A stretch of 64,000 nucleotides of DNA from Massalongia carnosa (lineage: Eukaryota), in contig OZ287083.1 in NCBI GenBank assembly GCA_965645245.1, positions 124,001-188,000 on the forward strand. Reading direction: 5' to 3'. The position numbers were made by a program, and so were the translations under genes. Position 1 is the stretch's first letter; each line of letters starts with the position of its first letter. The notes below the pieces were generated by a model that made no database searches, was not told the origin of the DNA, and saw nothing but the letters and a program-made list of their open reading frames with translations. Below are positions 3,969 through 32,250 of the stretch, piece by piece.

Positions 3969-4456
3969 TAAAATTCCTTTGATTTTAAATGAGGACAGCG
4001 TGTGTAATATCATCCGCAACACGTATTTACACGGTCTTTTGCAACGCACAGCATTAATCATTTGGGATAAGGTGTCGATGCAATACAAACAATGCTTCAT
4101 GGCCCTATATCGCACTTTTACGGACCTTTTAGGCAATGACGATCTTATCGGAGGTATTCCGATGGTGTTAGGCTGAGATTTCGCTCAAATCTTGCCCGTT
4201 GTTCCCCGTGGAAATCGGCAAGCCATCGTTGCGGCGAAAATTCAAAACACCTTTCTGTGGCCACGATTTCAAAAACTGTTTTTGCGTCAAAACATGCGAA
4301 TTAGTAACGGAGTCGCCAATGAGGCGTTTGCGGACTGGATCGGGAAAATGTCTTATGATCCTGCTTTTTACGGTCGTGTTCAGCTACCGGAACAAGTCAA
4401 TCAATTGAATAACTTAGAGAGTTTCGTGGACATCGTTTTTCCTTCGGATCGCATGC

Positions 4457-5811
4457 TGTTATAGCGCCGCCGTATAAGGCTGATTATTACTAAGCCTGAT
4501 GATTCAGCGGTGCTGAACACAGTCATACTATAGTCAGGTCGAGTGTAATGGGCTACGAGACCAGTAAGCTTATCACGAGCGACACTGATCTCGAAAGGGG
4601 AAATGCTCAGCGTGAGAGGTGGAAGATAGCTACTACGTGCTAGTCTCCGAGAGTATACGTGATCCAAAGAACTAATGGATGTGGAAGTGCTTAGACCAAG
4701 AGATCTCGTCCGAGACCTAAACGTAGGTTGTTCATAGAATAAAGACTAATTGCTAACGAATACTACAAGATTCGTTCTGATATTTATCCTACTCACCCCA
4801 AGCCTATAGCCTTGGGAGCCTTGGAACCTTAGGAGCCTTGCAAGCCTTGGGAGTCTTGCGAGCATTACAGCCTTGCAATCCACATCCGACTTTATCACAT
4901 TACATCCAACCATCCCTCAGGATCCATCTACGAACTCGGCGTTCGCTGGATCATCTAGTCAGCCTCGAGCAGCCTTCTAGATCTTCCCTTGCAAGGTAGA
5001 ACCATTCTACCCCCGGCTAGATCCCTCACTACATGCCTCAGGCTATGTAGCTTCATTTCGCCGTCACCACTACCTAGTGATGGAAGGTTACCTCCGACTG
5101 AATACCTCGCTATACTGCGGACCTGCCTCTAGACACAAGGTCTAGACAACGAGGTCATGTAGGTTCATTCAGCCGACATCACTACCAACGTAGTAATAAA
5201 GGTTGAAGCTGAATTTTACACCGGGGAGCCTAGCTCAAGCTGCGTCCAGCGAGCCGTGCCTCCTGCTACCTCTCTTGAACCATCAAGAGATCCAGTAGCT
5301 CCGAGTAGGCCAGTAGATTCCATATAGAGTTCCTCGGCGTCTCCACAGGAGTCCGCCTTACACTCCATGGCAATCTACCACCACGGCCTCGACAGGTGTT
5401 TGATCTGTAAGTAGTCAAGAACGTGATAACAATAACTCCGAAGTTTCGGGGCAAGATGGCAGTGTGTCAGCCTCGACGGCTTATGCGACTTCGTACTACG
5501 GCATGGTCCACGCTAGTTAATCCCGCAACCGCCATATGCGATCACGTATCCCTCTAGCGCCATCCGTATTACATCAAGCGATTACTACTAGGACGGGACA
5601 GAAGGTCTGAGCCCACGGAGGAACGTCCGCCCTTAGTTGGCATAGTTGGCAGAGTACTGAAGAAACTCGACCTCGACTATTCCCACTGATCTATATAATA
5701 TGGTGTTAGGCCCACCTAGATAGATAATCTTACAATTTAACTACTCCGTACTGAATTTTTCTACTCTTAACCTACTACACTAACTACTCCTAGTTCAGAG
5801 TCACTCTAACA
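4457..5811. mobile_element. Solo LTR (~320 bp of its own sequence) hosting a second solo LTR
   Basis: Starts TGTTA, ends TAACA, flanked by TSD CATGC (4452-4456, 5812-5816); interrupts the Helitron helicase. Confidence 0.8.
4544..5573 (-). mobile_element. Solo LTR of the Gypsy family found at 7135-13220
   Basis: TGTAAT...ATTACA ends; highly similar to LTRs 7135-8149 and 12231-13220; flanks TCGAG/TCAAG (TSD with one G>A change). Confidence 0.92.
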
Positions 5812-8239
5812 CATGCGGCAAGCTCATCTGGATGCGGATTTTTTCGCAAGTCGAGCAATTTTGACTTTGCGAAACGATATCGTCGCGGAGTTAAACGGTG
5901 CAATACTGATAAAATTGCAGGGCGATTCGCACACCTTGAATTCCGTTGATCAAATAGAGAACGATACGGCGCAGGAACGAGGAGACTTTCTTCCTCCCGA
6001 GTTTTTACGGACCTTGCAAACATCGTCTTTACTACCTTCACAATTGCAACTGAAACTTGAAGCTCCGATTATTTTGTTGCGGAATTTATATCCCAAACTT
6101 GGTCTCTGTAACGGCACCCGATTACGTCTTACTCACATTTCGCGGACCTGTCTAGAGGGAAATATTTTGGGAGGAGAATTCAACGGTGAAACGCGATTAA
6201 TTCCCCGGATTCTTCTTAATACCACGGAAGGCGAGTTGCCCTGGATCATAAGTCGCAAACAATTTCCCATACGATTGTGCTTTGCTATGACTGTCAACAA
6301 GTCGCAAGGTCAATCATTGGACACGGTAGGAGTCGATTTGCGAGCTCCTCCTTTTACTCATGGTCAGTTATATGTAGCATTATCTCGAGTTGCGGATGTG
6401 TCTCGATTGTGTGTGTTGTTTCCGGAACGAAATGACGGAAAAGCGGATAACATTGTATATGCGGAAGTAATTCTGTGATCGCAACATGACATGATAACTC
6501 ATGTTCCTCCGAATCCTGCTTTAAGTTTATGATGATATACGGTATCAAGTCACTTAGAAATTGTATTCAATTGCAAAATAGACAGCAACTTTATTGTGCT
6601 ATCAAAAATTTACCGTCCGGGTAATCAAGTGTGACAGCTGCGAATATTAAATTAAATAGATAATACTGTGGTTTTGACTTTACAACCTTTTACAAATTGT
6701 ATCGATCGTAAAAACTTGAAATCGGTTCCAAAATCTCGGTTCTGAGATGGTACGGTCTCGTCTATATTGTACTGAATTACCTCCCCTGCTACTTTGGGCA
6801 AGACTACCTTATTCGGTTAGATCCAACCTCATGCGGTTAGATTTAACCCGAAAAGGGGAAGGCGTGTTGCGGAACAGTACTGAATTATCAAATAATGCGG
6901 AGAGGACGCCGTACGGAAAAGATCAAAAAGAGGCACCTCATTGCGAGCATGCATTTCATCGTATGATGTCCTAAAACTTTGCAGACCTATGAATCATGTC
7001 AACTATAGTCGATATGTCGAAACTTGCATGCTTTTTCGCCCGTTTGCGATGGGGGGAGGAGGTATCTTCGCGATGCATCAGATTTTCTTTGAAATCGTCC
7101 TTAAGAGGTTTAGCGCGGACTCGATTGGGTTTACTGTAATGAGCTACGAGACCAGTAAGCTAATCACGAGCGACACTGATCTCGAAAGGGGAAATGCTCA
7201 GCGTGAGAGGTGGAAGATAGCTACTACGTGCTAGTCTCCGAGAGTATACGTGATCCAAAGAACTAATGGATGTGAAAGTGCTTAGACCAAGAGATCTCGT
7301 CTGAGACCCAAACGTAGGTTGTTCATAGAATAAAGACTAATTGCTAACGAATACTACAGCATTCGTTCTGCTATTTATCCTACTCACCCCAAGCCTATAG
7401 CCTTGGGAGCCTTGGAACCTTAGGAACCTTGCAACCCAGATCTGACCTTATCGCCTTGCATCCAACCATCCCTCAGGATCCATCTACGAACTCGACGTTC
7501 GCTGGATCATCTAGTCAGCCTCGAGCAGCCTTCTAGACCTTCCCTTGCAAGGTAGAACACTTCTACCTCCGGCTAGATCCCTCGCTACATTGCTAGCCTG
7601 CCTCTAAACATAAAGTCTAGACGCCGAGGCTATGTAGCTTCATTTCGCCGTCACCACTACCAACGTAGCGATGGAAGGTTACCTCCGACTGAATCTCTAT
7701 CTACACTGCGGACCTGCCTCTAGACACAAGGTCATGTAGGTTCATTCAGCCGACATCACTACCAGCGTAGCAATAAAGGTGGAAGCTGAAGTTTACACCG
7801 GGGAGGTCGAGCTCAAGCTGCGTCCAGCTAGCCGTGCCTCCTGCTACAACTCTTGATCCATCAAGAGATCGAGTAGCTCCGAGTAGGCCAGTAGATTCCA
7901 TATAGAGTTCACGGCTAGTCTCCACAGGAGTTCGCCTTACTCCATGGCAATCTACCACCACGGCCTCGACAGGTGTTTGATCTGTAAGCAGTCTAGAACG
8001 TAGTAACAACTAATTCGGAGTTGTGTGGCAAGGTGGTGTCGTGTCAGCCTCGACGGCTGTGCGACTAAGTACTACGGCTTGGCTCATGCTAGTTAATCCT
8101 GCAACCGCCGTAGGCGATCACGTATCCCTCTAGCGCCATCCGCATTACAATTGCCTCCCCTCTAGGACGCGAGCTCCGCCGAGCGTGTAGTGGATAGTAA
8201 CGACACGTTAGGTGGGTGGTATGATGTGTATGGCAGGCG

Positions 8240-8470
8240 GTGAAAAACCTCCTTCCTTGTATGATAGCAAGGAGTAAAACCGGCCTCCGAAGTCAATGAA
8301 AAACCTCCTAACCCAGTGAGAACTGAGGAAGAAAACCGACTTATCGAGATCGATGAAAAACCCTAAAACCCTGATAAGACAACGGGAGAACGTAGGGAAA
8401 ACCGACTTTTCAAGATCGATGAAAAACCCTTAAACCGTGATAAGATAACGGGAAAACGAAGGGAAAACCG
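8240..8470. repeat. Degenerate short repeats in the Gypsy 3' UTR
   Basis: About 4 copies of the (GATC)GATGAAAAACC(C)T / GAAAACCGAC motifs. Confidence 0.6.
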
Positions 8471-8515
8471 ATCCTAGATTCCATAGCATGTGGCAGGAGA
8501 GAAACCCCGAGGCTT

Positions 8516-11048
8516 CTACTTCTTCGCCTTCTTGCTCCGAGTGCTGGTAGCTGGTCGGCCGTGTTTCCGCTTGTTTTTAGGCTCAACGGTCGGCTTAGCC
8601 ATTGGCGGTGCGGTGTCGATAGGAGGAGAGGTTGCTGTCGGCTTGGTGGGGTTACCCTCATGGTAGGCTTTGACGATCTTCCGTAGGTGTTTGATAGCTG
8701 CCGCCGGTTCTCACGTACTTTCATCTTCTGGATAACCTCATGCCACCAATGCTGACTTTGTAAGGACCTTCAGAGGTCAAGTCTTGGCGGAGCGTATCCC
8801 AAAATTGACGTAGTTGAGGGACGACGTGCGTTCCGCAGATGATGACGTGGTGTGGAGGGGTGAGATGCTGAGTACTAGTGATACCAGAGATGCTGGCGCT
8901 GGTCAGCGAGGACTGCAATCGGTGAAGGATTCGAGTATTCTCAGCTCGAAGCACTTCCTCTTCGCCTTGGCTCCTCTGAGGATAGCGAGATAAAGCATCG
9001 GCAGCTCCATTAGCCTTGCCTTGACGATAATCGATGCGGAAATTGTAACGAGAGAGTTCTTGCGCCCGGCGAACCTGGCGGGGCTTAAACTCTTCGCATC
9101 CATAAATCGCTTCAGGTTGTTGTGGTCTGTAAGCACGAGAACTTCATGATTACAACCTTCGAGATAATGCCTCCAATTCTTAAAGGCTTCAACGATGGCC
9201 AGTAGTTCCCCATCGTGAGTTTCGTAACGAGTTTCTGCAGGAATCATTTTCCGAGAAAAATACGCTACTGGGTGCCATTTGCCGGTTTCGATATCCAGCT
9301 GGCTAAGAACGCCACCTATGGCGTAACCCGAGGCGTCCGTCTCAAGTCGGATGTGGCGCTCAGGGTCAAAATGTCGGAGGATCGGTTCTTCAGTGAACGC
9401 CTGCTTTAATTGGGCAAAGGCTAACTTAGCGGCAGGAGTTAGGAAACAACATTCTTCCTCTCCGCACCTTGCCTTTGGGGATGGCCCAGTGTTGGCTACC
9501 AAGTTTGTTTTGAGCATCGAGGTGAGTGGAGCAGCAATCTTGCTGAACCCCTGGATGAACCGCCGGTAGAAGTTGGCGAATCCCATAAACACCTGGACGT
9601 CTCGTACTGACTTGGGTTCTGGCCAGTTCTTGACAGCTTCAATCCTTTCCTCTTCCATACGAATTCCTTGGCTACAGACAACGTAGCCTAGGAAGCGAAC
9701 CTCATCCTGATGAAAACGGCACTTCTTTAGATTGGCAAAAAGTCCGTTTTTTCGGAGGTTCTCCAAGACCCACTTAACAGCCTCAACGTGGCCTTGGCCT
9801 GAGTCCTCGGTATAGATCAGGATGTCATCCAAGTATACGATAACGAAGATGTCGAGTTTCTCTGCTAGAATTTTGTTGATATAGCCCTGAAAACTAGCTG
9901 GGGCATTAGAAAGGCCGAAGGGCATAACCTGATACTCGAAGTGGCCATATCGAGTCCTGAAGGCCGTCTTCCATTCGTCACCTTCTCGAATTCGCATCCG
10001 ATGATACGCATTCGTGAGATCCAGATAGGTAAATCGCTTGGCACGGCCTAGTCGATCAAGCGACTCTCCAATCAAGGGTAACGGGTACCGATTCTTGATC
10101 GTCAGGGTATTGAGTCCTTGATAATCCACACACAGGCAGACTACCGTCCTTCTTGCGGATGAACAGTATCGGAGCACCAGCCGGAGACTGGGAAGGCCTA
10201 ATAAAACCGCTGGCTAGGTTGGTTTCGATATAGGTTTTCAGTGTCTCTAGTTCCACAGGACCTAGGCTGTAGATTGGGCCATAAGGTGGCTGCTTACCAT
10301 CTACTAGGTCAATAGGATGGTCGTTAATGCCGGTGTGCTCCGGTAGCTCTACTGCGGAGCCAGGGGAGAAAACGTTAGAGAAGTCGGAATATTCAACGGG
10401 GATCTTGGCCTCCTCGCTCACTAGCGAGGCTACTTGGGCCTGACGAGAGGCGTGGATCGGCATGGACGATGGCTTGCTTACGGCCATTACATGCACCACA
10501 TATACCTCGTCGTCTCCTCCAAGAACCGCCGCCGCGAATTCTTCCTTATCGATGATCTCCACACGTCTGGTTGTTGGTAAAGCCTCGGCAGCTGTGTAGG
10601 TTCTCCAGGCGAGCTCTCGCTCTGCGAACCGTATATCCACACTGCTGAGTGTAAGAAAAGGCATCCCCAGGACCACCTCCAGGCTAATATTAGCCAACAA
10701 GAAGGTTTCCTGGAAGAATCGAACCTTCCCTAGCTTGTCCTTGACCGCGAACCCTGCGATAACCATACCGAAGGTATCCAGGTGAGATCCATCAATCTTT
10801 TGCGCCCCAACATCTGTTTCCCTAACACGAAGGCCTAGTTTCGCGGCATAAGCGGGGTGCATTGCGTTGAGCTCGCTGCCCGAATCTATCAAAGCCTGTA
10901 TCTCGTCTTGATCCTTCCTCAAATGGACCGGATATCGAATACAAGGAACCCGCTCAAGATTAGCCTCCTTACTAGTTTCAGTCGGAGGCGCGGAGGTTGC
11001 CAAGACCGATACTAGTTTTTTGAGGCGTCCTTCTTGGACTCGCGACAA
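8516..11048 (-). pseudogene. pol: Gypsy pol: protease, RT and RNase H (frameshifted) plus chromodomain tail; no integrase core
   Basis: ALIDSGSELN (aspartic protease), YLDD (RT), ETDASGYAIG (RNase H), then GYPEDEST*EPAAAIKHLRK...KPTATSPPIDTAPP. Confidence 0.9.
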
Positions 11049-12156
11049 GTATTTGAGTAGTGTCCCTTCTTGTTGCAGTTGATGCAGGTGATTTGGGATA
11101 AGTCCTTGCTGGTGCCGCTGGAAGTGTTGGCACCGGTGGCCGGAGTCGACTCCGAGCCTTTCCGATCTCGACCATGATCAAGACGTCGCTGCCTTTTCTT
11201 TTCTCTTCGAGCTTTCTTGTCAGCAATCTCGCTGTTCTCTGGGCGCGAGGAGTTTGATTGCTTCGGACCCGACGGTTTGGGTTTTTCGCTAGGCTCGTCT
11301 CGAGGGTCTCGAGTAGAGGTCTGGGTTTGGCCACAGTGGCATGAGCGGGCCGGTTTCCATGCGGACAACGCTGATCCATCTCACGAAGGATCGATTGCGG
11401 CTGCAGGCTAGCTTTTGCCTCAGCATCGATCGCTTTTTCGACCAGCTCCTCCCAACTGTCTAGTTCCCTTCCTCGTTGTTCCATCTGGGCCTTTATCGAA
11501 GGCTTGAGGCCTTCACGAAAGAACCGGATAAGGTCCGACTCCTCTGGAGCTCCCTCATCGTCAAACTCCAGGAGTATAGATTGCAGATGTTCCAGGTGAG
11601 AAGCCCAATCCTGAGCTTCTTCTTGTTGATACTGGGAGTCCCGCTTGATCCTACTCCAGGTTGCGTCCACAAAAGCCCTGGAGTCTCCAAGATTCTTCCG
11701 AAGGAAAGCCTTGAACTCGGTCCAAGACAAAGGTCCTACCTCTTCGCCTTGGCTTCGACGTTTGTGCTGGTGCCAACGAAAGCTAATCCGGCCACGAAGG
11801 AAAGATGCGGCAAAGGGTGTACGGTTTGACCCCGTTGCGCCGGCGGTGTCAAAGTGGTCTTCGCATTGTTGGCAGAAATGGTAACACTCCATATGGGACT
11901 TTCCATAGTAGAGATCCGGGAACCAAGCTTTCAACTGACCTTCTCGGGGGCCTTCATGTCGACTACCTTGTGCCTGGAGGAACGACTCCATGCAGAGCTT
12001 TGTGATTCTCTGCAGATCTTCCTCTGTGTATTTGGCAGGGCCCGTAGCTTCCCCAGTGCTTGGTGTCGGTGACTCTTCCGCTGAGGAGATCTTGTTGGAC
12101 CTTGCCGAACATTCCGGCGAGGGCGAGAGCTTGATGACATCGTTTGCGGAGTTCAA
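11012..12156 (-). pseudogene. gag: Gypsy gag with a frameshift before the CCHC zinc knuckle
   Basis: Capsid-like ORF 10978-12156; ORF 11012-11368 carries CINCNKKGHYSNTC. Confidence 0.85.
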
Positions 12157-13814: not shown

Positions 13815-15200
13815 AGTGGTGGACATAAGTTGGCCTGGCAGGTGGACAAAAGGTGATATTAGTGGTGGACAAAAGGTGGTCTGGGCTATACACAAAAGGT
13901 GGTCTTGGTGATGGATAAAAGGTGGTCTGGCAGGTAGTCTGGGTGATGGACAAAATGTGGTCTGCCAGGTGGTCTGGCAGGTGGTCTGGACGATGATTAA
14001 AAGGTGATTTGAGTAATGGACAAAAGGTGGTCTGGCAGGTGGACAAAAGGTGGCCTGACGAGTGGACAAAAGATTATATTAGTGGTGGACAAAAGGTGGG
14101 CTGGGTGATGGACAAAAAGTGGTCTGGGTGATGGACAAAAGGTAGTCTGGCAGGTGGACTAAAGGTGGTCTGGGTGATGGACAAAATGTAGTCTGGCAGG
14201 TGGACAAAAGGTGGTCTGGGTGATGGACTAAAGGTGGTCTGGGTGATGGACAAAAGGTGGTCTAGTAAGTAGACAAAAGGTGGTCTAGGTGATGGACAAA
14301 GGGTGGTCTGGCAGGTGGTCTGGTAGGTGGTCTGGACGATGATTAAAAGGTGATTTGAGTGATGAACAAAAGGTGATCTGGCAGGTGGACAAAAGATGGT
14401 CAAAAGGTGGTCAAAAGATGGTCAAAAGGTGGTCAAAAGATGGTCAAAAGGTGGTCAAAAGGTGGTCTGGACGATGATCAAAAGGTGATATGGATGATGG
14501 ACAAAAGATGATCTGACAGGTGGACAAAAGGTGGTCTGGCAGGTGGACAAAAGGTGGTCAAAAGGTGGTCAAAAGGTGGCCTGGATGATGGACAAAAGGT
14601 GATCTGGGTGATGAACAAAAGGTGGCCTGACAGGTGAACAAAAGGTTATATTAGTGGTGGACAAAAGATGGTCTGGGTGATGATCAGAAGGTTGTCAGGA
14701 CGATGAACAAAAGATGATATGGACGATGGACAAAAGATGATCTGATAGGTGGACAAAAGATAATATGGGAGGTGGACAAAAGGTGATCTGAATAGTGATC
14801 AAAATGTGGTCTGAGTGATGGTCAAAAGGAGGTCTTGCAGGTGGACAAAGATGATATGAGTCTTGCAGGTGGACAAAGATGATATGAACGGTGATCAAAA
14901 GATGATATGAGTGATGGACCAAAGATGATATGAATAGTGGTCAAATGGGGTCTGAATGATGAACAAAAGGTGATTTGGGTGATGATTAAAAGGTGGTCTG
15001 GACGATTATCTGGCAGGTGATCTGGACGATGGACAGAAGATAGTCTGGAGGGTGGACAAAAAGTGATACGGGTGATGATCAAAGTGTGATCAGGCTGGTA
15101 GTCAAATGGTTATCAGGACGATGATCAAGAGATGATTTGGATGATTGACAAAAGGTGGTCTAGATGATAGATGAACGGTGTTCTGGATAGCAGACAAAAA
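13815..15200. repeat. G-rich degenerate minisatellite (core GGTGGACAAAAGGTGGTCTGG; 11-bp AAAAG(G/A)TGGTC run at ~14392-14467)
   Basis: Directly visible tandem motifs; the TTFCPP/PPFVH ORFs on the minus strand are translations of it. Confidence 0.9.
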
Positions 15201-18326: not shown

Positions 18327-20290
18327 TCAAATCGTGATGCCAGGATGCAAGGAGAACTGTTTGAGATCCTTTTCGAGAGGTGCTAGCACACCTTCATAGA
18401 CTAAGCGTTTAAAGACGTCAAAGTCTAGTTGCTTCTTGCTATCTTGTAACTCAAATTGACATCTCAAACAACGTTGGACCACGAACCCATAATTAGTACC
18501 TGCCTTTTCGAAGACGGCATCGATCTTGTTCACTGCAGTCTGATAATCATCAATAAGATTACCTGTTGTGACTATATCATCATTAGGCTGCGGGGTACGA
18601 AGATCCTCCAAAGGTTTATTAAGGCAAAGCTCGACAAGGACGATGCCGAGAGCAAATAGAGTTTTGTTGATGATCAGGCTATCAAGGATATCATTATTCC
18701 TTAAGTTCGGACTAAGTTGCAAGGTACTTCTGCTTGCCGATGGACTAAAGCTGCGAGAGACATAAGCATGATTGATCAAAGGCTGGTTGTCTTTATCCAA
18801 GCCTTGAAAGAAAAACTTAATATCTTTCTTGCTCCAAATCTCGCTCAGCCAGGGTGATTGGTGCAGTTGCAAAACGCTGGATGCCAATGTGACTGCAATC
18901 TCTAGCCGTTGGCGTCTAGAAAGTTTGCCAAAGTTGATACGTTGTGAGATATGAGGTTGCTTGGACTGAAGCAACGACTCAAGGAGAACAAGCTTCGGAG
19001 GTGGAGTTGGTGCTATTGTTGTCGTGGTGATGCTGATATTTCTTTTTCGGGATGTGTCTGCCAAAACACCAAGACACTTTGGTTCTTTCTGAGCATCTAG
19101 AATGGCTTGACAAAGGCAATCGATCAATGACAGAGAAGTGTGACTTCCTTTGCATGTCGGCTCTGCAAGCAAAATTTCAGTATTTAAACCTAAGAAGACT
19201 CCATACAATAAAATAATTTGAACTTACGATGTGTTGATGAGTTGCTTGCTTGTACAAAATCTGTCTCAGGTGGCTCACAAATACGAACCGATTTTTTAGT
19301 TTTATTCGTACCGGGTAGTGGAGCCAAGTTTGATGAAGTTGAATTCAAGGGATGGGTCATACTAATGATTGGTGCTTGAAGTGATGAAGGTTTGACGGTA
19401 GGGCTGATATCTAACTCCTCGATATCTACTCGAGCCTCTTGCCATATCTCCTGACCGAGACTATGATGAAATGAAAAGTGAACTTGAAATGAGGGGTTTT
19501 TTCTGATAACAACCTGTGGGTCGAGTTGTAGATTCGCGTGATGTGGCTCCAGACATTGACATTTCCAGCACGTCTCGACCACCTCATAGAGACCACAGGC
19601 ATGGTTCCTGACCAGATTGACGTATTTCAAGTAGGACTCGGACTTTTCTATGATTAAAGCTGCAAGAATCTCCTGTTGTTCGACTGAAGCAGCAATATCA
19701 AGGTTGTATCTCTCGAAGTTTCCAATCAGTTCATCCCGTTCCTTTCGCCCGAAACTACGTCTGACTTTCCTCCACTCCCATTCAAGGCGCTTGCGGCTTT
19801 GGACGGATGAAGTCGCAGGGTCAGTCCAACCCGGCTGAAAACAATGAGTTAGCATTTGCCTGCTTCCGGGACATTAGATTAATCTTACCTTGCTTTCAAT
19901 ATCGATATCTAGTTTGAACATGAGCTTCACCATGATAGCCTGCATTTCCGCAACCACGTCCATGAACGTGTCATATCGACTACCCAGCCTCGACCGAAGC
20001 TTATTCTTAATATCAATCGTCCCCCAAAGGGCAACATTCGTCGAAGCCTGCGATATCGGGAAAAGAGCGTTAGCTTCAGGTTCAGATATCTCAGGTAGCA
20101 GAAGGCGCTTTAGAGTGCCTTCATAGAGGTCTTGTTGAATTCTCAGACGGGTCCGCAGCCCCTTCAGAGTGTTGCCATATCTTCGATAATCTTGAATTGG
20201 ATTTAGCCCATCGCGAAAACGTTCAATAGCATTGATGACCAAGGGGAGACCCCCAAGGACAAGACCGACGATTTCAATACCGGTGGCCAT
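18327..20290 (-). CDS. Three-exon gene (~614 aa): N-terminal HeLo-like helical domain plus C-terminal DUF7580-type (kinase-C-lobe-like) domain
   Basis: Exons 20290-19889, 19834-19228 and 19162-18327 join in frame through GT-AG introns (GCTAAC branch site in intron 1). Starts MATGIEIVGLVLGGLPLVINAIE. C-terminal motifs RLEIAVTLASSVLQLHQSPWL, LFALGIVLVELC and YGFVVQRCLRC. Family call is from recall. Confidence 0.82.
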
Positions 20291-20401
20291 GAAGACATTG
20301 GAGCAGGATACACTTTAAGGACTGATGGCGAAGATTGCGGTAGGAGTGCGTGAGGAGAGAGCTCACTGCCCTAAGAGATGTGGATGGGCGTGGTGGGGTT
20401 C

Positions 20402-23400
20402 CGAGTAGATTCGGGACAGACCCCATCTGGCAGACCTCGGAAAGTTCTACTGCTTATTAGGACTAGCTTAAGCCTCACTAAATTAACAGTCCATCTACTA
20501 ATGCAACGTCCCCCCGCAAGCTTCATATACCCAATCACTTGCAACATTACTTATTGCTGTAGCCATTCAAACATCACACGTAGCTAGCCTCGGATTATTT
20601 GATGAGGGGTAATCATCCCATATGCCCAACGTTAATCATCTTTCGATTATATTCTTTCACTCAGTCATGGCCTCCGCCTTATTTTCCCTAGATCAGAAAA
20701 TTGGAAAGGCCAAGGCCCTTCTCCCTCCAGCCCATTGTCTCCCCCCTCAAGAGACAGACCGCCAACGAAAGAGTACGAAAGTTTCGTTCAATAACTGCAA
20801 ATATAGAGTCCGCCTGAGAAAAAAAAAGATGAGATCTGGAGCTTAGCACTCACCAACCCCGTACACAATCATTCCATGGTCAATGACCCTTTCAGTTTCA
20901 AAGAACATCATAATAGGGACCCCGACCGAGCAGAAACCCTAGACCATGCGAAAGGTCTTCGCGATTCATATACTAAATATACCCAAGCCTCAAGAACTTT
21001 GCGTGTTCGGGGACTTCGTCTTTCGAAGAATGATTATTATAACCTAGTTCGATCTGAAGGGAGTCATACACCCGTAGAGGAAATGGATTATACACTTGGA
21101 TACTTGAAAGAGGGAGGGTTTCACGTGCGCTGTTTGGAGAAATATATAGTTGAAAACAACATACGGCAGCGACGTGTTGTGGAGTTATTTTTCTTCTGCA
21201 ATAAAGAGCAAATCAGATTAGCCAGACGTTTCGTCAGTGGGTTTTTGATCGAAACGGATGCAACGTTCAATACTAACAAATTGAACTTGCCTCTGTCCGT
21301 TGTAGTTGGAGTCACTAATACAGGACTTATCTTCCCCGTGGCCTACTGTTATATAACTTCCGAATCGGCGGAATGCTTCACTTTTCTACTTGATTGTATG
21401 AAGGACTTGATCTTTCATGACGAATGCCCTGGTCCTAGAGTCATACTTGGAGACTTTGCAGCTGGGTTATCGGCGGCGATGCAGAGAAAAAGGCTTCAGA
21501 CAGTAGATGCTGACGCTGCATTGGGCATGGCATGGCAAGTCTCTCAATCGATGATCGCGGGGCGGTTATGACTGCGCTTTTGCAGCTTTGCACCTGGCAT
21601 GCAGCCGAAGCCATTAAGAAACGACTCATCAAGGCGGGGACCTATCCAGTAGAGATTCGGAAAGAATTGATGGCGTTGATCTGGGCGTGGATAAAGTCTC
21701 CTACTATCGAACAATTGAATGAAAGAAGGAGGACGTTGTTGAACAAATTGCACGATTCAGAAAAGGTATGTTGTTGTGTAGAAGTTGAGGTTTAACCATG
21801 AGGTTAAACCTGATTGAGTTATAGTTAGGATTAATTTTCGCGAGGACTACGGCTAATAGATATGTTTTTATTTGCAGGATTATCTTATAAAATTTTATAA
21901 ACGCCAGGAAGCTCACTTTGTGCACGCGCATACCAATCAGCTTCCTAATTTAGGTGCGAATAGCACTCAGCCGGTTGAAGGCCTACATCCTATGATCAAA
22001 AGTGTGACCAATAGGCATACTCCCATGAGAAAATCCGTTCAGAAAATCTGTGATGAGGTTAAGGAGAAGCAGATTGAATATGAAACCATGATCAATCAGC
22101 AACGAATCAATAATCCTCGATTGATGGATAGGTTTGCATTCAGACATCTCACGGGAAAAATAACTCATCAAGCTATTGACCTCGTCTCCAGAGAGTTGGA
22201 TGGGGCCAAAAAGCTAGCTGAAGAGTTCAATCAGCGAGTCTATTCAGAATTGACCTCACAAATTGAACTAACAGGCGAGATTTGTGTATATGATTGTCGA
22301 CTGCCTTTGCGATTTGGTCTCCCGTGCAAGTGTTGGTTGTATTCTTGCGTCATTCCCATCCCCATCTCTCTCATTCATCCTCGCTGGTTTTTCGATGGTC
22401 CGCCTGCTGTTTTCTCGTGGCGAATGACTTTTGATTCTGCCTTAAGCTTTGAAGACATGCTTAGAAACGCTGCGGGAGAGGGAGGGGCGGAGCCAGAAGA
22501 GGATAAGGAAGATGATAAGGAGGAGGTATGGGGGGAGGGTGAGGATGAGATGGAAGAGGAGGATGAGGAGGAGATGGAAGAGGAGGATGAGCAGGAGGTG
22601 AGAAGAAGGAAAGGCGAAAGGGGAGAAGTGAAGAAGGACGGTGATAGATATCGCCGCGGTGGAGTTGATATGATGCAATCTGCAGCATTTGAGTCAATGG
22701 ATTTGCACAAATCAATGGAAAATTCACATCGAGATGAGGAGTATGCTCGAGCATACGTAGCAAACAGCGCCAAATTCAATCAACAATGGCTGGAAAGGGA
22801 GTCGGCTAGATCTCTTATCCCAACAACTTTCCCTGATGAAATCCGACCGAAGGAAAACCTCAGGTGGGAAAAGGGAGGAAGTCGTCGCCGTGCTTACACT
22901 GGCCGCGAGGCAGCTGAGGCAGATGAGGCCAATCAGCGACGTGTTAGACGTAAGGACTCGATTGAACAAGGGAGAAGGCGACGGCATGATAAACTGCGTG
23001 AAAGCGATGAAAACGAGAGTGTGATTAGCGATGGTAAAAACCCACGATATAAGCAAATCGACGCAGCGCGGCTAACATATGATGTAGTAGATTTGACTGA
23101 AGATGCGGTCATCGTCTCCGACGACGATGACCTGCATTATGTAGACACTCAGCCGATTCCCGATCCTTCTACGAGTCTCACACTTCCTTCGAATGACAAC
23201 GATGCATCTTCAACCTCTTCCGATTCGTTTGAAGATATTGATGAAGTGCTGGCGAAACATAGTCAAAAAGTCTCATCTCAAACGGCCCCGTCCCTTTATA
23301 GTCTTAGTCAAAACCTCCGCCTCAGTCAGTTGCCTCCTACTTCGTCTGCCACAACGCGAAGGTCTCGGGGTGTAGCCAAAAAATCAAAGGCTCTGTTGGA

Positions 23401-23751
23401 GTTGGAGTCTCAGCAAAGGGCTGAGCAAGCAGATAAACAGGCTAGGGCCGAGGCGAAGAAGCAGGCGGCAGCTATGAAGATTGCTAGGACTATGAAGCCT
23501 AGAAAGGAGGATGTTTCGCAACTGATTGATGAGTTTTCAGAGTTGAGGTCATCGCAATGAGTTGTATATAATAGTAATGAAATAGTAGAGTGTAATAGGT
23601 GTGACTTTTTCATACAGTCAATCTGGATATAACGACTTATCAGCTAGGTATATGTTGCATTAGTAGATGGACTGTTAATTTAGTGTGGAGGTGAGGCTTA
23701 AGCTAGTCCTAATAAGCAGTAGAACTTTGGGGCCTGTCCCGAATCTACTCG
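20402..23751 (+). mobile_element. Mutator-like element (MULE) 1
   Basis: ~100-bp TIRs beginning CGAGTAGATTCGGGACAG; 9-bp TSD GTGGGGTTC (20393-20401, 23752-23760). Transposase motifs ETDATFNTNKLNLPL, VILGDFAAGL, LQLCTWHA, CVYDC...GLPCKC. Frameshifted. Confidence 0.93.
20647..23560 (+). pseudogene. MULE 1 transposase (frameshifted, probable intron ~21766-21877, long acidic/low-complexity tail)
   Basis: ORFs 20622-20846, 20876-21571, 21532-21795 and 21872-23560. Confidence 0.8.
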
Positions 23752-23923
23752 GTGGGGTTCGGTTCGAGACCTTTTGTGCGACTTGGGCCTGCCCGCGCTC
23801 TTTCGCAAGATGGATCTATCAATCGCCGTCTTCGACATCGGCTTGAACCATGACGTCTGCAAACTCAAGAGAAAGAGCATATAGTTTCGAAATCCCTACA
23901 GTTCCACAGTCGGGTATGTAAGG

Positions 23924-26900
23924 ATGCATAACTCTGTCCTTGGCAACGACGAACCCCGTCCATTTCTATCGCTCAATGCCTCATTCTCTGAGTGCCACTC
24001 CTTGTTTCGCGAGCTCTACTTCGTTCTCGCACACGATGATTGCAAGGTGACAAAGCAGGTATCACTTTCGCTTCTCAGTGATGAGTACGGCCGACTTGGT
24101 GTTTGGGGTGAGAATTCAGGTGCCCAGCGTACGGGGCGTGGCTCCTTAGACGATACATTAGGCAGTGAACCCAAAATACAATCTATTGTACTTGACCTTC
24201 TGGAAGATCTTAGTGCTGCTTTGACACAAGGCAAGTCTTGGAGTACGTCTGTCATCTACACAAGTTAAATTCATCACAGCAACGCGCATCGCCAAAGGCG
24301 ACGAGAAGCAAGCCGGCGAGAGAGATTATGATGATGCCTCATCAGACAAAGATTCTTTGAGTAGCGTTAGTACAGCTTCAGGAAAATCTGTCGATGGAGA
24401 TGGTAAACCGCGCCCTAAAAAGAGCGATTTCCAACATCTGGTTTCTTTCATCTTTGAGCAAATCCGCTCTTTGTATAAATTCTCTGTACTCCTGAGACGC
24501 CCTGCTGTGCGGGATAAATACATCCGTTCCATAGCTAAGGACCCTGAGATATCTTATTTCGCGAAATGGGATTACGAACACTTGAGAAACAAGTTTCCAA
24601 ATGCCAAGAAGTTTCTAGTCCGCCGGTTGAGCATAGCTAATACGAGACGGAGGCAGCAACTCAGACATTGGGAGAAACATCCTGATGTAGAGCAACTCGG
24701 CGATCATCTTATAGAGTCCTCACAAACCTTGCCTGACAAGAAAATTGAATTGAAACCTAAAGCCTATGCCGAGTCCCAGCCGCAGGAAGCTCAAGTAAGA
24801 CCCATGGCAGTCGAGAACCATGCTCAAAGTTTAGGTGTACTCTCCAAAACTACCAAACAGAGTTTCTCAACAGTCGCTTGTTCAGTTCTGAACGACAACG
24901 AAACTTTTTCTGGCCGCCCAAGAACAGTATATGAGCCATCAATTCAAAGTAAACACCGCTCCCTACGCGTCCCTGATCTACCCAAGGTCGTGCCTGGTGT
25001 TACTTCCTTTAGGTGTCCTTTTTGCCTAATTAGTCTTGAAGTGAAGACCATGTCTCAGAGACATCTATGGAAGTGAGTTATTCAACTTTTCTTCATGCTC
25101 AAGTGGATTAAAATCTGGCAGAAAGCATGTTTTCAGGGATCTTCGCCCCTACGTATGTACATTTGAAGGATGTCACAATGCCGAGAAACTCTATGTTACT
25201 CGTCATGACTGGCTCTTTCACGAACAGCAGGTTCATCAGCGTCGCTGGATTTGCTCAGGAGGTTGTGACCGGACTTTCAATTTCAAGGATTTGCTAAAAA
25301 CTCACCTCGAGACGGAACATCCACGTAGTTTCTCAGATGCTCAACTTTCTATTGTTCTGGACATGTCTGAAAGATCTGCATCTCTTGAAGAACGTTCCAT
25401 ATGTCCACTTTGCGCAGAAGAATTCAGTCTCCTTACCATAAGAAGTCATATTGCCTCTCATCTCGAGGATATTTCTCTTTTCGTCATGCCTATTGATGTA
25501 AGCGGCCAAGACGAAGACGGTGGATCACACCAGGCTGAAATGCCTAGTCATACTTTTGAAAGGATAGAAGATGAGTGTTTGAGTAGCATTGATTCTTTCT
25601 CTGACGGGGAAGCTGTTGGACAAATAGGGCAGAGTTTAGCCGACCTTTCAAAACATATTAAGATTAGCGAAGAGTTATCAAATGATCAAGTCGACCGTTG
25701 GCTGGAGACTGAAAGTGGAGCAGCCACAAATCCAGCCGGAAGCTTAATTGTCTCAGTTGAGAGATCACCGCCACCTTCCTCTATCTATCCGAGGCCAGAG
25801 AGACACCGACCACGATCCCATTCCTCTTCTGCTGATGAATGGTCAAGACGTTCGGATAGGAGCTCCGATGGACGCCCAGTCCAAACTCTCTCCCGCTCTC
25901 GTCGTGCTTCGTTAGTACGCTCGGATGAGACTCGCAGACGAAGCGATGCTTCTGATATCACGGACGCGTTAGAGCACACATCAATAACTGAGACAGTTAA
26001 CAATCTAGGAATTGTATACTCAGATCAGGGCAAGATGAACGAGGCCGAAGAGATGTATCTGCGGGCATTGACAGGATACGAAAAGGCCTGGGGTCCTGAT
26101 CACACATCAACCCTCAACACAGTCAACAATCTAGGAATACTGTATGCAGATCAAGGCAAGATGAACGAGGCCGAAGAGATGTATCTGCGGGCATTGACAG
26201 GCTACGAAAAGGCCTGGGGTCCTGATCACACATCAACGCTCGACATAGTCAACAATCTAGGAAATCTGTATAGAAATCAAGGCAGGATGAACGAGGCCGA
26301 AGAGATGTATCTGCGAGCATTGACAGGAAAGGAAAAGGCCTGGGGTCCTGATCACACATCAACGGTCGACACAGTCAACAATCTAGGAAATCTGTATGCA
26401 GATCAAGGCAAGATGAACGAGGCCGAAGAGATGTATCTGCGAGCATTGACAGGAAAGGAAAAGGCCTGGGGTCCTGATCACACATCAACGCTCAACACAG
26501 TCAACAATCTAGGAATACTGTATGCAGATCAAGGCAAGATGAACGAGGCCGAAGAGATGTATCTGCGGGCATTGACAGGCTACGAAAAGGCCTGGGGTCC
26601 TGATCACACATCAACGCTCAACACAGTCAACAATCTAGGAAATCTGTATAGAGATCAAGGCAAGTTGATCGAGGCCGAAGAGATGTATCTGCGGGCATTG
26701 ACAGGATACGAAAAGGCCTGGGGTCCTGATCACACATCAACGCTCGACACAGTCAACAATCTAGGAAATCTGTATGCAGATCAAGGCAAGATGAACGAGG
26801 CCGAAGAGATGTATCTGCGGGCATTGACAGGCTACGAAAAGGCCTGGGGTCCTGATCACACATCAACGCTCGACATAGTCAACAATCTAGGAAATCTGTA

Positions 26901-27954
26901 TAGAAATCAAGGCAGGATGAACGAGGCCGAAGAGATGTATCTGCGAGCATTGACAGGAAAGGAAAAGGCCTGGGGTCCTGATCACACATCAACGGTCGAC
27001 ACAGTCAACAATCTAGGAAATCTGTATGCAGATCAAGGCAAGATGAACGAGGCCGAAGAGATGTATCTGCGAGCATTGACAGGAAAGGAAAAGGCCTGGG
27101 GTCCTGATCACACATCAACGCTCAACACAGTCAACAATCTAGGAATACTGTATGCAGATCAAGGCAAGATGAACGAGGCCGAAGAGATGTATCTGCGGGC
27201 ATTGACAGGCTACGAAAAGGCCTGGGGTCCTGATCACACATCAACGCTCAACACAGTCAACAATCTAGGAAATCTGTATAGAGATCAAGGCAAGTTGATC
27301 GAGGCCGAAGAGATGTATCTGCGGGCATTGACAGGATACGAAAAGGCCTGGGGTCCTGATCACACATCAACGCTCGACACAGTCAACAATCTAGGAAATC
27401 TGTATGCAGATCAAGGCAAGATGAACGAGGCCGAAGAGATGTATCTGCGGGCATTGACAGGCTACGAAAAGGCCTGGGGTCCTGATCACACATCAACGCT
27501 CGACATAGTCAACAATCTAGGAAATCTGTATAGAAATCAAGGCAGGATGAACGAGGCCGAAGAGATGTATCTGCGAGCATTGACAGGAAAGGAAAAGGCC
27601 TGGGGTCCTGATCACACATCAACGGTCGACACAGTCAACAATCTAGGAAATCTGTATGCAGATCAAGGCAAGATGAACGAGGCCGAAGAGATGTATCTGC
27701 GAGCATTGACAGGAAAGGAAAAGGCCTGGGGTCCTGATCACACATCAACGCTCAACACAGTCAACAATCTAGGAATACTGTATGCAGATCAAGGCAAGAT
27801 GAACGAGGCCGAAGAGATGTATCTGCGGGCATTGACAGGCTACGAAAAGGCCTGGGGTCCTGATCACACATCAACGCTCGACACAGTTAACAATCTAGGA
27901 AATCTGTATAGAGATCAAGGCAAGATGAACGAGGCCGAAGAGATGTATCTGTGA
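23924..27954 (+). CDS. Three-exon gene: helical N-terminal domain, C2H2 zinc-finger cluster (AcuF-like), Ser/Arg linker and 42-aa TPR array; a stop in repeat 16 truncates an array that continues to 28359
   Basis: Exons 23924-24230, 24280-25072 and 25122-27954 join in frame (GC-AG intron, then GT-AG intron). Motifs RLGVWGENSGA...SLDDTL, LSIANTRRRQQL, CPFC...WKKHVFRDLRPYVCTFEGC, CPLC...HIASHLEDISLF. No Walker A / NACHT / NB-ARC motif seen. Confidence 0.87.
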
Positions 27955-28368
27955 GCATTGACAGGAAAGGAAAAGGCCTGGGGTCCTGATCACACATCAA
28001 CGCTCGACATAGTCAACAATCTAGGAAATATGTATAGAAATCAAGGCAAGATGAACGAGGCCGAAGAGATGTATCTGCGAGTATTGACAGGAAAGGAAAA
28101 GGCCTGGGGTCCTGATCACACATCAACGCTCGACACAGTCAACAATCTAGGAAATCTGTATAGAGATCAAGGCAAGATGAACGAGGCCGAAGAGATGTAT
28201 CTGCGAGCATTGACAGGAAAGGAAAAGGCCTGGGGTCCTGATCACACATCAACGCTCGACATAGTCAAAAATCTAGGAAATATGTATAGAAATCAAGGCA
28301 AGATGAACAAGGCCGAAGAGATGTATCTGTGGGCATTGACAGGAAAGGAAAAGACCTGAGGTCCTGAT
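25975..28368 (+). repeat. 19 x 126-bp coding TPR repeats with very high internal identity
   Basis: Unit TLxxVNNLGxLYxxQGKMNEAEEMYLRALTGxEKAWGPDHTS, counted 19 times across ORFs 25291-27954 and 27958-28359. Confidence 0.97.
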
Positions 28369-29824: not shown

Positions 29825-32250
29825 TCAAGTGGGCGTCTTGTGAACCAACTCCGCATGGTTCTGCAAGTTCATTTTGCTTGTCAAAACATCTTGACACCTT
29901 GGATGAGGGCATGTGATCAGATGACCGTCTTGATGATGACGAAGGTGTTTACAATGGAAGTGCTTTTTCAGATCGTAGCGGCTGTGGAAAGACTTCAGAC
30001 GTGTCTCGGTGGGTAGCGTTACACAGCCGAGGCAAAAGATACATTGAGTGGGTTCGCATTTAATCGGGATGGAGTCTGAAAGAGAGGCCGGATCGAGGAC
30101 AGATGGTGGTGTCAGATGCCGTTCCTTGATGACCGACGCGGAAAGTTTTGAACGACGTGGACGCTTGCCTTCCTACAAGCGACTAAGGGCTATCAAAGCA
30201 TTGATCGCTTCCACCCGCCGTTTGCACTCTTCCTCTGAGGATGACGTCGCGAAGGTGAGGAGGATATCGATGACCCGGACACGCTTCTCGAAGACGTATC
30301 CTCTGCCTTCGCCGTCTCCAGTTCTTCCGACGGCAGTCCTTTCAGCTTTCGTTGAATGTCGATCACCGGCTGCTCCCTCTTATACCTCGCTTTGATCTCT
30401 TGTAAAAGAGCCTCCTCTGCCGCCGTTTTATGTTGCGATGAGCTTGATACGCCTTTTGATACTTATTCTACACTGATGTCCCCTTCATGCTCGCGATGGG
30501 TCCATGATTGTCTTTGATAAACTGGAACATTTTCTTTTGCCTCCGGCGAAGGAGTCTCACCTCTGGGTGACGATCGACCTGGGCTTTTTGGGCGTCATTG
30601 AGCTTCCGAGGCCGTCGTCGATCAATCGTACGACTCATTCCACTGGCGAGCCGCATCAACGCATTTTGCGGCTTCAAACCATGATAGGCGGCCCCGGTAT
30701 CACTCGTGATATACCTCGAGAGATAGATTTTTAAGAACACGGTGGAGTTGTGGTGTTGCAAAATCAGATTCCGTTGCGATTCGCTGATGAAGCCTGTGCA
30801 AGGGTCAGCGAAAAGCTCAAAAGAAGATTGACAGAGGTCGTGTTACACACTTGCTGTTGTCGAGAGCTTCGCTATTGCCGCGTCGAAAGATGTATGAACC
30901 GGTGGGAAGCTTCATGCCGGTGACGCTTCCAAGGGTTATCATCCGTGAGCGAAGAGTACTGTCAGGCAGAGCTTTGTCATCCGAAATTCGAACTCCGTTC
31001 ACGGTGAATTCGGATCGGCGGAAGAGGAGAACGTGTAGCATCGTTTCCTTAAGGGGAAACGGCAGCTGTTTCTGTCCCGGGGGGATCCGGAGACGGAATA
31101 ATTGTTCGGCAGAAATCAATTCGGGAGCGGCGAAGGCCTGATCGATAAAGATCAAAGTGAGTAGGTTCAGACGAGGACAAAGCAGCAGGCATGGTTCGTC
31201 AGGCTCGTCAGGACTCCTGAACTCGTTTCTATGATACTTGTCAGTCGTTCAGTGAAACAGTCCGTCTCGACGAAGAAAGCACAAAAGGGCAACATGGACG
31301 TTTCTTTATCGCCTAGATAGCCCTTCGTATTCTTGAATGCGATTTCGATCAACCGTCGAGGAAGCTCCCATCCTTCGAGATCCGGAAGCAAGGTGATCTT
31401 AACATCTTTGTAGCACACACCCAAGAGGGCAGCAGGACGGTTGTCTGTGATTCCGGCTAGCTGCATGATCAAGGCTAGTTGTACACGGTGCCGCTCGTGA
31501 TCAAAGACGATCTCGACGGAGAGAAACAATGTCTTCAGGAGCTCGAACTCGTCCTCGGCCCGCATGATGAGCTTCTTCATCTTCTTCTCAGTCCTTAACC
31601 CATGCTTCAGAGCGAGCCGTTGTCTCGCCTAGTACTGGTTAATCAATAGAGTCGTAGAATAGGGCTCTCGTACCCTATGCATCTAGCTTTTGATAAGCAG
31701 GTCGATCTCTAGACAGCCAGTCTCTTTCTTTTGTGTTTGCAGGATACCAGCCGCACTCAGCCGATCTTTTCGAATGGAGAGTAGCCAGTCGAAGAAGACG
31801 TAGAGGATGTCGATAGAGATCTCCTTGAGAGTCATGACGGGGTTCTTCCCAGTGAATTCGCAATATCTGTCAGCCTCGATCAGATTTCGCCAGTCCACGA
31901 TAGTAGTAGTAGCATCTCCTTACCGATACCAAAGGTTCTTAATCCAGCTCTATAGATCCTCGCTGCTATCCTTGTAAACTCGTTCAGGGAAAATTAAAGT
32001 CGACGAGCGTGGACGATAGGTGATCGACGTGAAGGAGGGACGGCGAAAATGGAAGTGGGAGAATAAGAGGGTTGGAAAGGTGAAGATGAAGGGTAGAGGG
32101 ACACGAAGAGAAAGGTCGTCAGAGACGATGGGAACGGAGGGGAAGCTGAGCATAACAGCCGATTCTGGAGGTCGGGGGGAACGATGAAATAAATACCAGG
32201 TGTCGGACAAGGACCATGAGGACCAGCTGAGTGATGATGCTTGAGGCATG
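29825..32250 (-). pseudogene. DUF3435 tyrosine recombinase (Starship captain-type) with C-terminal zinc finger; decayed, start uncertain
   Basis: Fragments FDHERHRVQLALIMQLAGITDNRPAALL, FKNTKGYLG, YIFRRGNSEAL, QHHNSTVFLKIYLSRYITSD, MSRTIDRRRPRKL. Terminal CIFCLG...LKKHF...CPHPRC...LQNHAELVHKTPT* (stop 29825-29827). Internal stops and frameshifts. Confidence 0.8.

Follow-up and report, generated by a model that had tools for sequence, protein, structure and literature searches.

Two divergently transcribed genes in a 64,000-nucleotide window of Massalongia carnosa (GenBank assembly GCA_965645245.1, contig OZ287083.1, positions 124,001 to 188,000 of the forward strand) are best explained as one copy of an old and widespread two-gene module of filamentous ascomycetes. 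The left gene of this pair belongs to the DUF7580 family and the right gene to a family of C2H2 zinc-finger proteins, in the window ending in an array of tetratricopeptide repeats (TPRs). Conserved pairing, co-divergence of the partners, their fusion in a single open reading frame (ORF), tandem and same-strand variants and the lack of a third conserved gene all argue that the left and right genes probably form one functional unit. Judged from a structure model, the left protein is best read as having the build of MLKL, with a helical bundle, brace helices and a pseudokinase in one chain. The right protein has the three-part order of a NOD-like receptor (NLR), being composed of a bundle, a centre and repeats, but with zinc fingers as the centre and without the nucleotide-binding switch. 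Fungal regulated cell death and non-self recognition are explained by NLRs, by HeLo/HELL or gasdermin executors, and by amyloid or protease signalling. The best-supported reading of the pair, to which we give an even chance, is that of a necroptosis-like death module in which the right protein is the sensor or regulator and the left protein the executor.

The original prediction placed two spliceable divergent genes at 18327..28359, separated by a Mutator-like element (MULE) of the DNA transposon type. The predicted exons and introns and both start codons were confirmed from the sequence (Table 1). The left introns are canonical as read from the sequence (GTAAGA...CAG, 54 nt; GTAAGT...CAG, 65 nt), and the spliced protein of about 614 amino acids (aa) starts with MATGIEIVGLVLGGLPLVINAIERF and is colinear with a 611-aa homologue, P0001. 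In the right gene, exon 2 matches the homologue P0007 (E 2.4e-25), intron 2 (25073-25121) is canonical (GTGAGT...CAG) and exon 3 spans 25122-27954. Right intron 1 is most likely a 49-nt GC-AG intron (24231-24279), giving ...ALTQ-A-TRIAKG; this tentative assignment is preferred because it fits the family alignment and because the GT-AG alternative is too short. The latter, with only 37 nt and a poorer fit to the family alignment, was rejected.

Table 1. Coordinates of the gene pair, the inserted element and the other elements of the transposon-rich window, a helicase fragment included (positions are those of the window; TSD, target-site duplication; HMM, hidden Markov model)
Feature	Start	End	Strand	Remarks
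Left gene, exon 3	18327	19162	-	C-terminal part of DUF7580 kinase-like domain; stop 18327-18329
Left gene, exon 2	19228	19834	-	Brace-like helices and N-lobe part of kinase-like domain; 'mid' HMM match E 9.4e-37
Left gene, exon 1	19889	20290	-	ATG at 20290; 134 aa; N-terminal helical-bundle domain with hydrophobic Gly-rich first helix
Promoter, left half	20291	20401	.	Includes TSD copy 1 (20393-20401)
MULE DNA transposon	20402	23751	+	3350 bp, in shared promoter; transposase ORFs 20807-21571 and 21860-23560
Promoter, right half	23752	23923	.	Includes TSD copy 2 (23752-23760); short upstream ATG-TAA at 23916
Right gene, exon 1	23924	24230	+	ATG at 23924
Right gene, exon 2	24280	25072	+	Fourth bundle helix, 'mid' (LLRRP...ANTRRRQQL), FSTVA...SGRPRTVY, first CPFC knuckle
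Right gene, exon 3, first part	25122	25983	+	C2H2 module (KHVFRDLRPYVCTF...; HMM match 25120-25491), disordered Ser/Arg-rich linker
Right gene, in-frame TPR array	25984	27954	+	TPR_10/TPR_12 units 1 to 15.6; ends at TGA 27952-27954
Post-stop TPR remnant	27955	28368	+	Units 16 (rest) to 19, same frame; R>W, W>stop, A>V, E>K
Window transposon	5810	6478	+	
Window transposon	8903	12171	-	
Window transposon	32923	37965	+	
Window transposon	42135	46394	-	
Window transposon	49714	51908	+	
Window transposon	53419	54207	-	

Exon 3 of the left gene is a member of Pfam DUF7580 (PF24476), with a score of 103 bits (cut-off 27; E 3.2e-29), and DUF7580 was found in 12 of the 13 left-type relatives scanned. 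The structure of the left protein was considered on an AlphaFold model of its closest full-length homologue, P0001, which has a predicted local distance difference test score (pLDDT) of 80.9 and a predicted template modelling score (pTM) of 0.70. This model consists of a helical bundle at residues 3-125 (helices 3-28, 32-66 and 91-125), three helices at 147-223, the counterparts of the brace-like helices of exon 2, and an alpha/beta domain at 232-611 within which a disordered insert sits. All top 50 Foldseek matches of the model are kinase domains (E 8e-3 to 4e-2, probability 0.91-1.00), and in a profile search of the PDB the left family matches B-Raf with an E-value of 0.0045. The columns equivalent to HRD (445-447 of P0001) are not conserved, and the family column frequencies give P[FY][VI]S as the equivalent of DFG, both motifs having been mapped onto P0001 in an alignment by eye and not a structural one. 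Since the modelled fold is that of a kinase and the HRD and DFG columns are not conserved, DUF7580 is best read as a pseudokinase.

The extreme N-terminus of the left protein is a hydrophobic helix that begins with MATGIEIVGLVLGGLPLVI, and in relatives the motif likewise stands at residue 1-3. The consensus M-S-G-x-E-x-A-G-L-V-L-G-x-x-P-L-x-I-S-A-L-E-H-Y is strongly conserved in the family, with column conservation of 100% for E5, 96% for G3, 97% for G8 and 98% for P15. Residues 1-134 are matched at E<=1e-3 by 966 representatives (50% identity), nearly all from their own residue 1-3, and no protein of NLR length is among the best 150 matches. An N-terminus of HeLo type had been predicted for the left protein. 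The helical bundle of the model and the hydrophobic first helix agree with this, while membership of HeLo or HeLo-like families did not hold at the sequence level: the first 134 residues match no Pfam family at E<=0.1, and among 110 relatives there is a single match to HeLo (PF14479, E 0.045) and a single one to PigL_N (PF17111, E 0.046). Alignment of the left-family profile with the PigL_N domain of P0007 by hhalign gave a probability of 0.1, and the HeLo domain of HET-s is in neither the left nor the right VIA top-50 list, nor in the PDB profile searches. By language-model (Atlas) features, the first 200 residues of the left protein fall beside HeLo clusters (score 0.94, 8 of 30 matches), which is to be taken as a lead only.

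The conserved core of the right family has four parts. Its N-terminal region carries the motif E-Y-G-R-F/L-x-x-W-G and is followed by a helical middle (LLRRP...ANTRRR-QL-YW) and by a linear motif (FSTVA...SGRPRT-Y); the fourth part consists of three or four C2H2 fingers in which the Cys and His columns are invariant. The finger module has 36 homologues, 31 of which carry the precomputed annotation zf-C2H2_AcuF (PF26082, Pfam 38), and its profile matches classical C2H2 fingers in the PDB with E-values of 9e-5 to 1e-3. The model of the right protein reaches a pLDDT of 84-97 over residues 305-465 and contains helices and zinc fingers only. Its N-terminus, too, is a four-helix bundle according to the model, and in two of 38 relatives this region gives a weak match to Pfam HeLo (best E 1e-5). 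Profile comparison revealed no similarity between the left and the right family. The proposal that a helical and C2H2 module stands in the place of NACHT or NB-ARC agrees with the finding that neither domain occurs in any exon of the window or in the 38 aligned members of the right family. Among the 36 zinc-finger homologues one, P0192, which lies outside the 38-member alignment, carries a NACHT-type domain in a protein of the NACHT-ANK (ankyrin repeat) type.

Conservation of the pair was analysed on JGI metagenome contigs of unknown taxa, which were scanned with the right finger module. This yielded 306 pattern stretches, 128 of which encode a relative of the query, and 80 loci were kept. Alignments of the left and of the right family supplied the HMMs that were run against the six-frame ORFs of these loci; all loci are thus drawn from the right-gene side. 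The predicted head-to-head co-occurrence was borne out: a left-type gene lies directly upstream on the opposite strand in 49 of the 53 loci whose upstream flank is 2.5 kb or longer, and the strict criterion assigns a partner to 49 of the 56 right genes that have 1 kb or more of sequence upstream. Two further right genes (L008 and the second gene of L044) face a left gene with a degraded N-terminal match and an intact 'mid' and DUF7580, which brings the pairing to 51 of 56. The other five right genes are those of L075, L077(-) and L080 and both genes of L036. Three loci (L056, L059 and L068) have fingers with neither the right N-terminus nor a left gene. The HMM starts of left and right gene are 207-834 nt apart (median 377), which corresponds to a divergent promoter of about 200-800 bp; the distance in the window is 326 nt after removal of the MULE and one TSD.

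At 90% identity the 50 strict pairs fall into 30 clusters, with divergence of up to 85% in the left N-terminus and 67% in the fingers and a GC content of 0.42-0.57 among the paired loci. The distance matrices of left and right partners are correlated (Mantel r 0.778, a value reached by none of 2000 permutations), and separate maximum-likelihood trees of the two have at least nine clades in common. The nearest relatives of the window pair are L004 and L001, with 58-61% identity. One locus, L044, has two complete head-to-head pairs placed back-to-back (1899-8486 and 8662-11983), and therefore the pair can duplicate locally as a unit. In L036 (7344-13547), both genes are read in the same direction, the left one behind the right one, and a DUF7580-like gene whose N-terminus differs lies upstream. 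Furthermore, P0166 is a single ORF of 816 aa in which the finger module is fused to a complete left-type unit; residues 324-815, directly behind the finger module, align with the whole left profile over 449 columns (hhalign probability 99.6, E 5.5e-24). The flanks examined contain no further conserved gene; the sole recurrent 'family' there consists of ankyrin-repeat genes near five of 33 loci, one of them encoding a NACHT-ANK NLR.

The nearest protein relatives of the window pair are from Pezizomycotina, such as Flavoplaca, Endocarpon, Glonium and Pseudogymnoascus. Morchella conica, described here as an early-diverging lineage of Pezizomycotina, has a left-type protein (P0005) and a right-type protein (P0172) that are each recorded on a contig of 951,959 nt and may be a cognate pair. 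In L062, an NLR gene of the NACHT(NPHP3_N)-ankyrin type (884-4354, minus strand) lies about 4 kb from the pair.

The part of the right protein behind the fingers is variable, as had been expected of a sensor with an exchangeable C-terminal domain. Right proteins end in WD40 repeats in L006, L011, L012, L015, L028, L029 and L037 (the last also with TPRs), in TPR_10/12 units in L033, L046, L047, L054 and weakly in L044, in ANK repeats in L034, L058, L060, L062, L066, L067 and L075, and in DUF7104 with ANK in L049 and L050. Other loci have Cyt-b5, RhoGEF, SH3 or extra fingers, and many have no recognisable domain. Database homologues add ULD, BAG, DUF6590, kinase, Myb and DUF7580 domains and the NACHT-ANK protein, at or with the fingers, and P0007 has a C-terminal HeLo-like/PigL_N domain (E 2.6e-71). 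On a tree with 26 labelled tips, the C-terminal state changed at least 13 times. Across loci the nucleotide self-identity of the repeat arrays lies between 78 and 97%, and loci of one and the same cluster (at least 90% identity) were found with different copy numbers (TPR 7.8 versus 12.8, ANK 3.6 versus 25.4, WD40 5 versus 6). Internally conserved repeats with number polymorphism are described as making up about 1% of such repeats in Dikarya and as being enriched in fungal NLRs (Dyrka 2014, PMC4986451).

The array of the window itself follows this pattern. Tandem Repeats Finder reports a period of 126 with 18.9 copies and 93% matches at 25993-28368, and the unit table resolves 19 TPR units of 42 aa, with Pfam matches to TPR_12 (E 4e-202, 655 bits) and TPR_10 (E 5e-162, 522 bits). 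The 19 near-identical repeats that the original prediction saw at the end of the right gene are hence present as DNA, with the qualification that an in-frame TGA within unit 16 closes the ORF and leaves about 15.6 of them in frame. The array was acquired within the window's own lineage, as its closest relatives have Cyt-b5 or no domain at this position. In the difference matrix, units 3-7, 8-12 and 13-15 are nucleotide-identical blocks, which reflect either a very recent block duplication or an effect of assembly. The comparison with contigs of public sequencing runs reaches 26100, at the start of the array, and so covers neither the stop codon nor the three identical blocks. Summed contig depth at the first TPR units (25859-26100) is roughly 400-fold the depth found where the gene is single-copy, a sum that does not equal a copy number. 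This suggests that near-identical TPR units are present at many other sites in this genome, perhaps within other genes of NLR-like type between which repeats are exchanged.

The promoter shared by the two genes is interrupted by the MULE. This element has terminal inverted repeat arms of about 100 nt (20401-20507 and 23654-23752, inverted repeats I1-I3), a transposase domain (Pfam MULE, E 2e-13) and a flanking TSD of 9 bp, GTGGGGTTC, at 20393-20401 and 23752-23760; long terminal inverted repeats, 9-bp TSD and transposase domain together identify a Mutator-like element. The position given for it in the original prediction, and the distance of about 274 bp between the start codons once the element and one TSD are removed, proved accurate, the latter being exactly 274 nt. 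Contigs of three public runs, which may be the source data, extend across the junctions of the MULE with both genes, and the contigs of four runs include no joint that would mark an empty site. The sequenced organism appears to carry multiple copies of this MULE family, with summed contig depth several-fold to about 80-fold above the flanks (again a sum and not a copy number). Many contigs match the element and break inside it, and the many variant positions and internal-deletion joints among them (e.g. 20623 to 22467) suggest deleted derivatives. Whether the window copy of the pair is active is uncertain, because the MULE splits the shared promoter and the stop codon trims the TPR array.

On the mechanism favoured here, the C-terminal repeats of the right protein would bind a cue, upon which its conserved bundle and zinc-finger core would act on the pseudokinase of the left protein. 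The N-terminal bundle of the left protein would thereby be released to attack membranes, and the outcome would be regulated cell death as in necroptosis, achieved without a RIPK3-type kinase and without a nucleotide-binding oligomerisation domain (NOD). The gene anatomy, the folds, the conserved pairing with its co-divergence and fusion, and the domain swapping are observed; binding, the direction of signalling, membrane attack and a role in immunity or allorecognition are inferred. The computable predictions of a sensor-executor pair agree with the data, with the reservation that repeat sensors are present in about one third of the non-redundant pairs and that the right protein has a bundle as well. 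A more far-reaching version appears possible but is put forward tentatively, as rather less probable than the death module itself: filamentous ascomycetes may possess a second, NOD-independent class of intracellular immune receptors, with a four-helix bundle, a C2H2 centre and fast-evolving TPR, ANK or WD40 repeats, each encoded head-to-head with its own MLKL-like pseudokinase executor in a zinc-finger-switched, necroptosis-like pathway.

Several results weigh against the death-module reading. The left N-terminus is not a sequence-level member of HeLo, HeLo-like or SesA, and neither the left nor the right model gave a Foldseek match at E<=1e-3. The predicted four-helix bundle of the right protein, together with its weak HeLo matches, leaves either partner as a candidate executor. 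The classical C2H2 spacing of the fingers means that the right protein could be a DNA-binding regulator. TPR, ANK, WD40 or DUF7104 repeats are present in 10 of the 30 non-redundant pairs, with 17 of the 30 having no recognisable C-terminal domain (none or unknown) and three having Cyt-b5, RhoGEF or SH3; given this low share of repeat sensors, a general adaptor fits as well as an immune sensor. Finally, part of the pairing may be inherited synteny, the contigs being metagenomic and of unknown taxa.

The strongest competitor, which we nevertheless consider unlikely, is a non-lethal pair for signalling or transcription, in which the left protein, as a pseudokinase scaffold, controls how active the right protein, a C2H2 regulator, is, where it is located or how it is processed, while the variable right ends recruit different inputs. 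It accounts for the spacing of the fingers, which match ZBTB17, TFIIIA and Zif268, and for the 20 of 30 pairs without repeat sensors, some right ends being the general interaction domains SH3, RhoGEF, BAG, ULD and Cyt-b5. A shared promoter would suit autoregulation, and SltA/SltB may serve by analogy as an earlier case in which a zinc-finger protein and a pseudokinase act together (PMC4557415). What this explanation leaves unaccounted for is the invariant hydrophobic N-terminal helix of the left protein and its MLKL-like build. Moreover, high self-similarity combined with differences in copy number, as in the TPR, ANK and WD40 arrays, is typical of sensors of the fungal NLR type (PMC4986451), relatives of the right protein carry C-terminal HeLo-like (P0007) or left-type units, and the same zinc-finger family is found inside the NACHT-ANK protein P0192.

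Reversed or shared roles are more improbable still. Here the right protein would be an all-in-one receptor with its own bundle as executor, and the left protein a helper, guard, decoy, inhibitor (antidote) or partner in a mixed bundle oligomer. The structural matches of the right bundle include the richer list of immune death domains (two MLKL N-terminal entries, AtMLKL3, the coiled-coil (CC) domain of MLA13 and the CC-R domain of NRG1), the only Pfam HeLo match below 1e-4 belongs to the right N-terminus, and the right protein has the NLR order of effector, centre and repeats. However, neither the right N-terminus of the window nor the family alignment has an opening hydrophobic, Gly-rich helix of the left type, whereas the left protein retains its invariant hydrophobic helix at residue 1 and shares the build of a known executor; the dissimilarity of left and right profiles also disfavours homotypic pairing of the bundles. 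An inherited gene order without functional coupling, the two genes acting independently, is very improbable: divergent gene pairs as a rule break up slowly and resist rearrangement, and many of the loci are near-duplicates from metagenomes of related habitats (hence 50 pairs in 30 clusters), but the pairing persists through the full divergence of both partners (85% and 67%), across the whole GC range and through at least 13 C-terminal domain changes, it recurs in the back-to-back pairs of L044, the same-strand variant of L036 and the P0166 fusion, and no third gene has been kept alongside it.

The gene pair is embedded in transposon-rich fungal DNA. Besides the MULE in the promoter, the 64-kb window contains another MULE, which has a FAR1 domain, as well as a DDE_1 transposase of pogo-like type. 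Retroelements are represented by one gypsy-type element, with reverse transcriptase/RNase H and aspartyl protease, and by two of copia type in opposite orientation, and a fragment of a Pif1-type helicase is present too; the coordinates of these features are among those of Table 1. An ORF at 29825-30172 (minus strand), 1.5 kb downstream of the TPR array, has C2H2-like motifs (CIFCLG...HFHCKHL...CPHPRC...) and matches no Pfam family. A 1-kb block at 14001-15000 shows a very strong GC skew (0.58) together with an AT skew of 0.20. At the edge of the transposon-rich stretch, ORFs at 62173-63899 (minus strand) with DUF3419 and an S-adenosylmethionine-dependent methyltransferase domain probably represent one ordinary gene.

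A literature search, with subscription journals and supplements outside its reach, found no paper on DUF7580 as a kinase fold, on the zinc-finger family as an NLR-like scaffold or on their pairing. New here, as far as the models go, are the predicted folding of DUF7580 as a kinase domain, the MLKL-like left build and the putative four-helix bundle at the right N-terminus. The pair adds a candidate executor family with an MLKL look-alike fold, its N-terminal domain being common to 966 representatives, and, as candidate sensors, a family with fast-diversifying repeats of NLR type and zinc fingers in the place of the NOD. As the two genes are small enough to clone and are sometimes fused, the question is directly testable. 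If the pair is a death module, it bears on necroptosis-like killing that is licensed without a kinase or an ATPase of the STAND (signal transduction ATPases with numerous domains) class; if it is not, a large domain of unknown function still gains a fold and a partner.

Among known systems, SltA/SltB of Aspergillus nidulans resembles the pair as a combination, specific to Pezizomycotina, of a C2H2 protein with a pseudokinase-containing partner, in a cation-stress pathway (PMC4557415). SltB also carries a protease, and in the accessible part of that source the two are not reported as neighbours (PMC4557415); unlike the pair described here, they have neither helical-bundle N-termini nor repeat arrays. 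Gasdermin/protease pairs of the het-Q1/het-Q2 type follow the same adjacent two-gene logic, with an effector-controlling protein encoded next to the effector, and gasdermin-controlling proteases can be fused to WD40, TPR or ANK repeats without a NOD (PMC12881547). The present pair has neither protease nor gasdermin; its candidate executor is MLKL-like and its controller a zinc-finger protein.

With fungal NLRs, the right family shares the three repeat types WD40, ANK and TPR, including TPR_10 units of 42 aa, as well as high internal repeat conservation and differences in repeat number (PMC4986451), combinatorial swapping and a transposon-rich location. It differs in that the switch is replaced by a helical region and a C2H2 module, and in that many members are free of repeats. 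In Sordariales, according to the accessible part of PMC12258605, some NLRs have C2H2 fingers as an additional domain at the C-terminus, the only setting reported for them, and head-to-head NLR pairs are rare. The pairs HET-S/NWD2 and HELLP/PNT1 are similar in that of two adjacent genes one encodes an N-terminal helical bundle of membrane type and the other TPR, ANK or WD40 repeats. In contrast to these HeLo/HELL-NLR pairs, the sensor has no NACHT or NB-ARC and the genes stand head-to-head with a shared promoter. The left protein ends in a kinase fold, unlike HET-S, and no C-terminal domain resembling a prion-forming one was seen, although no direct search for amyloid motifs was made. Its N-terminus also fails Pfam HeLo and PigL_N, and Pfam does not assign DUF7580 to the kinases.

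Some fungal HELL domains are described as sitting in kinase or pseudokinase proteins, as in MLKL (PMC12881547, a 2025 review), and MLKL, the executor of animal necroptosis, is with the plant MLKLs the closest parallel in build to the left protein. There is no significant sequence similarity between them (the MLKL pseudokinase has an E-value of 0.55 in the profile search), and at a root-mean-square deviation of 18 the arrangement of the domains in the left protein differs. The left protein, known here from sequence and model, further has a disordered insert of about 60-170 aa in its kinase fold and, in the place of a RIPK3-type kinase partner, a dedicated zinc-finger neighbour.

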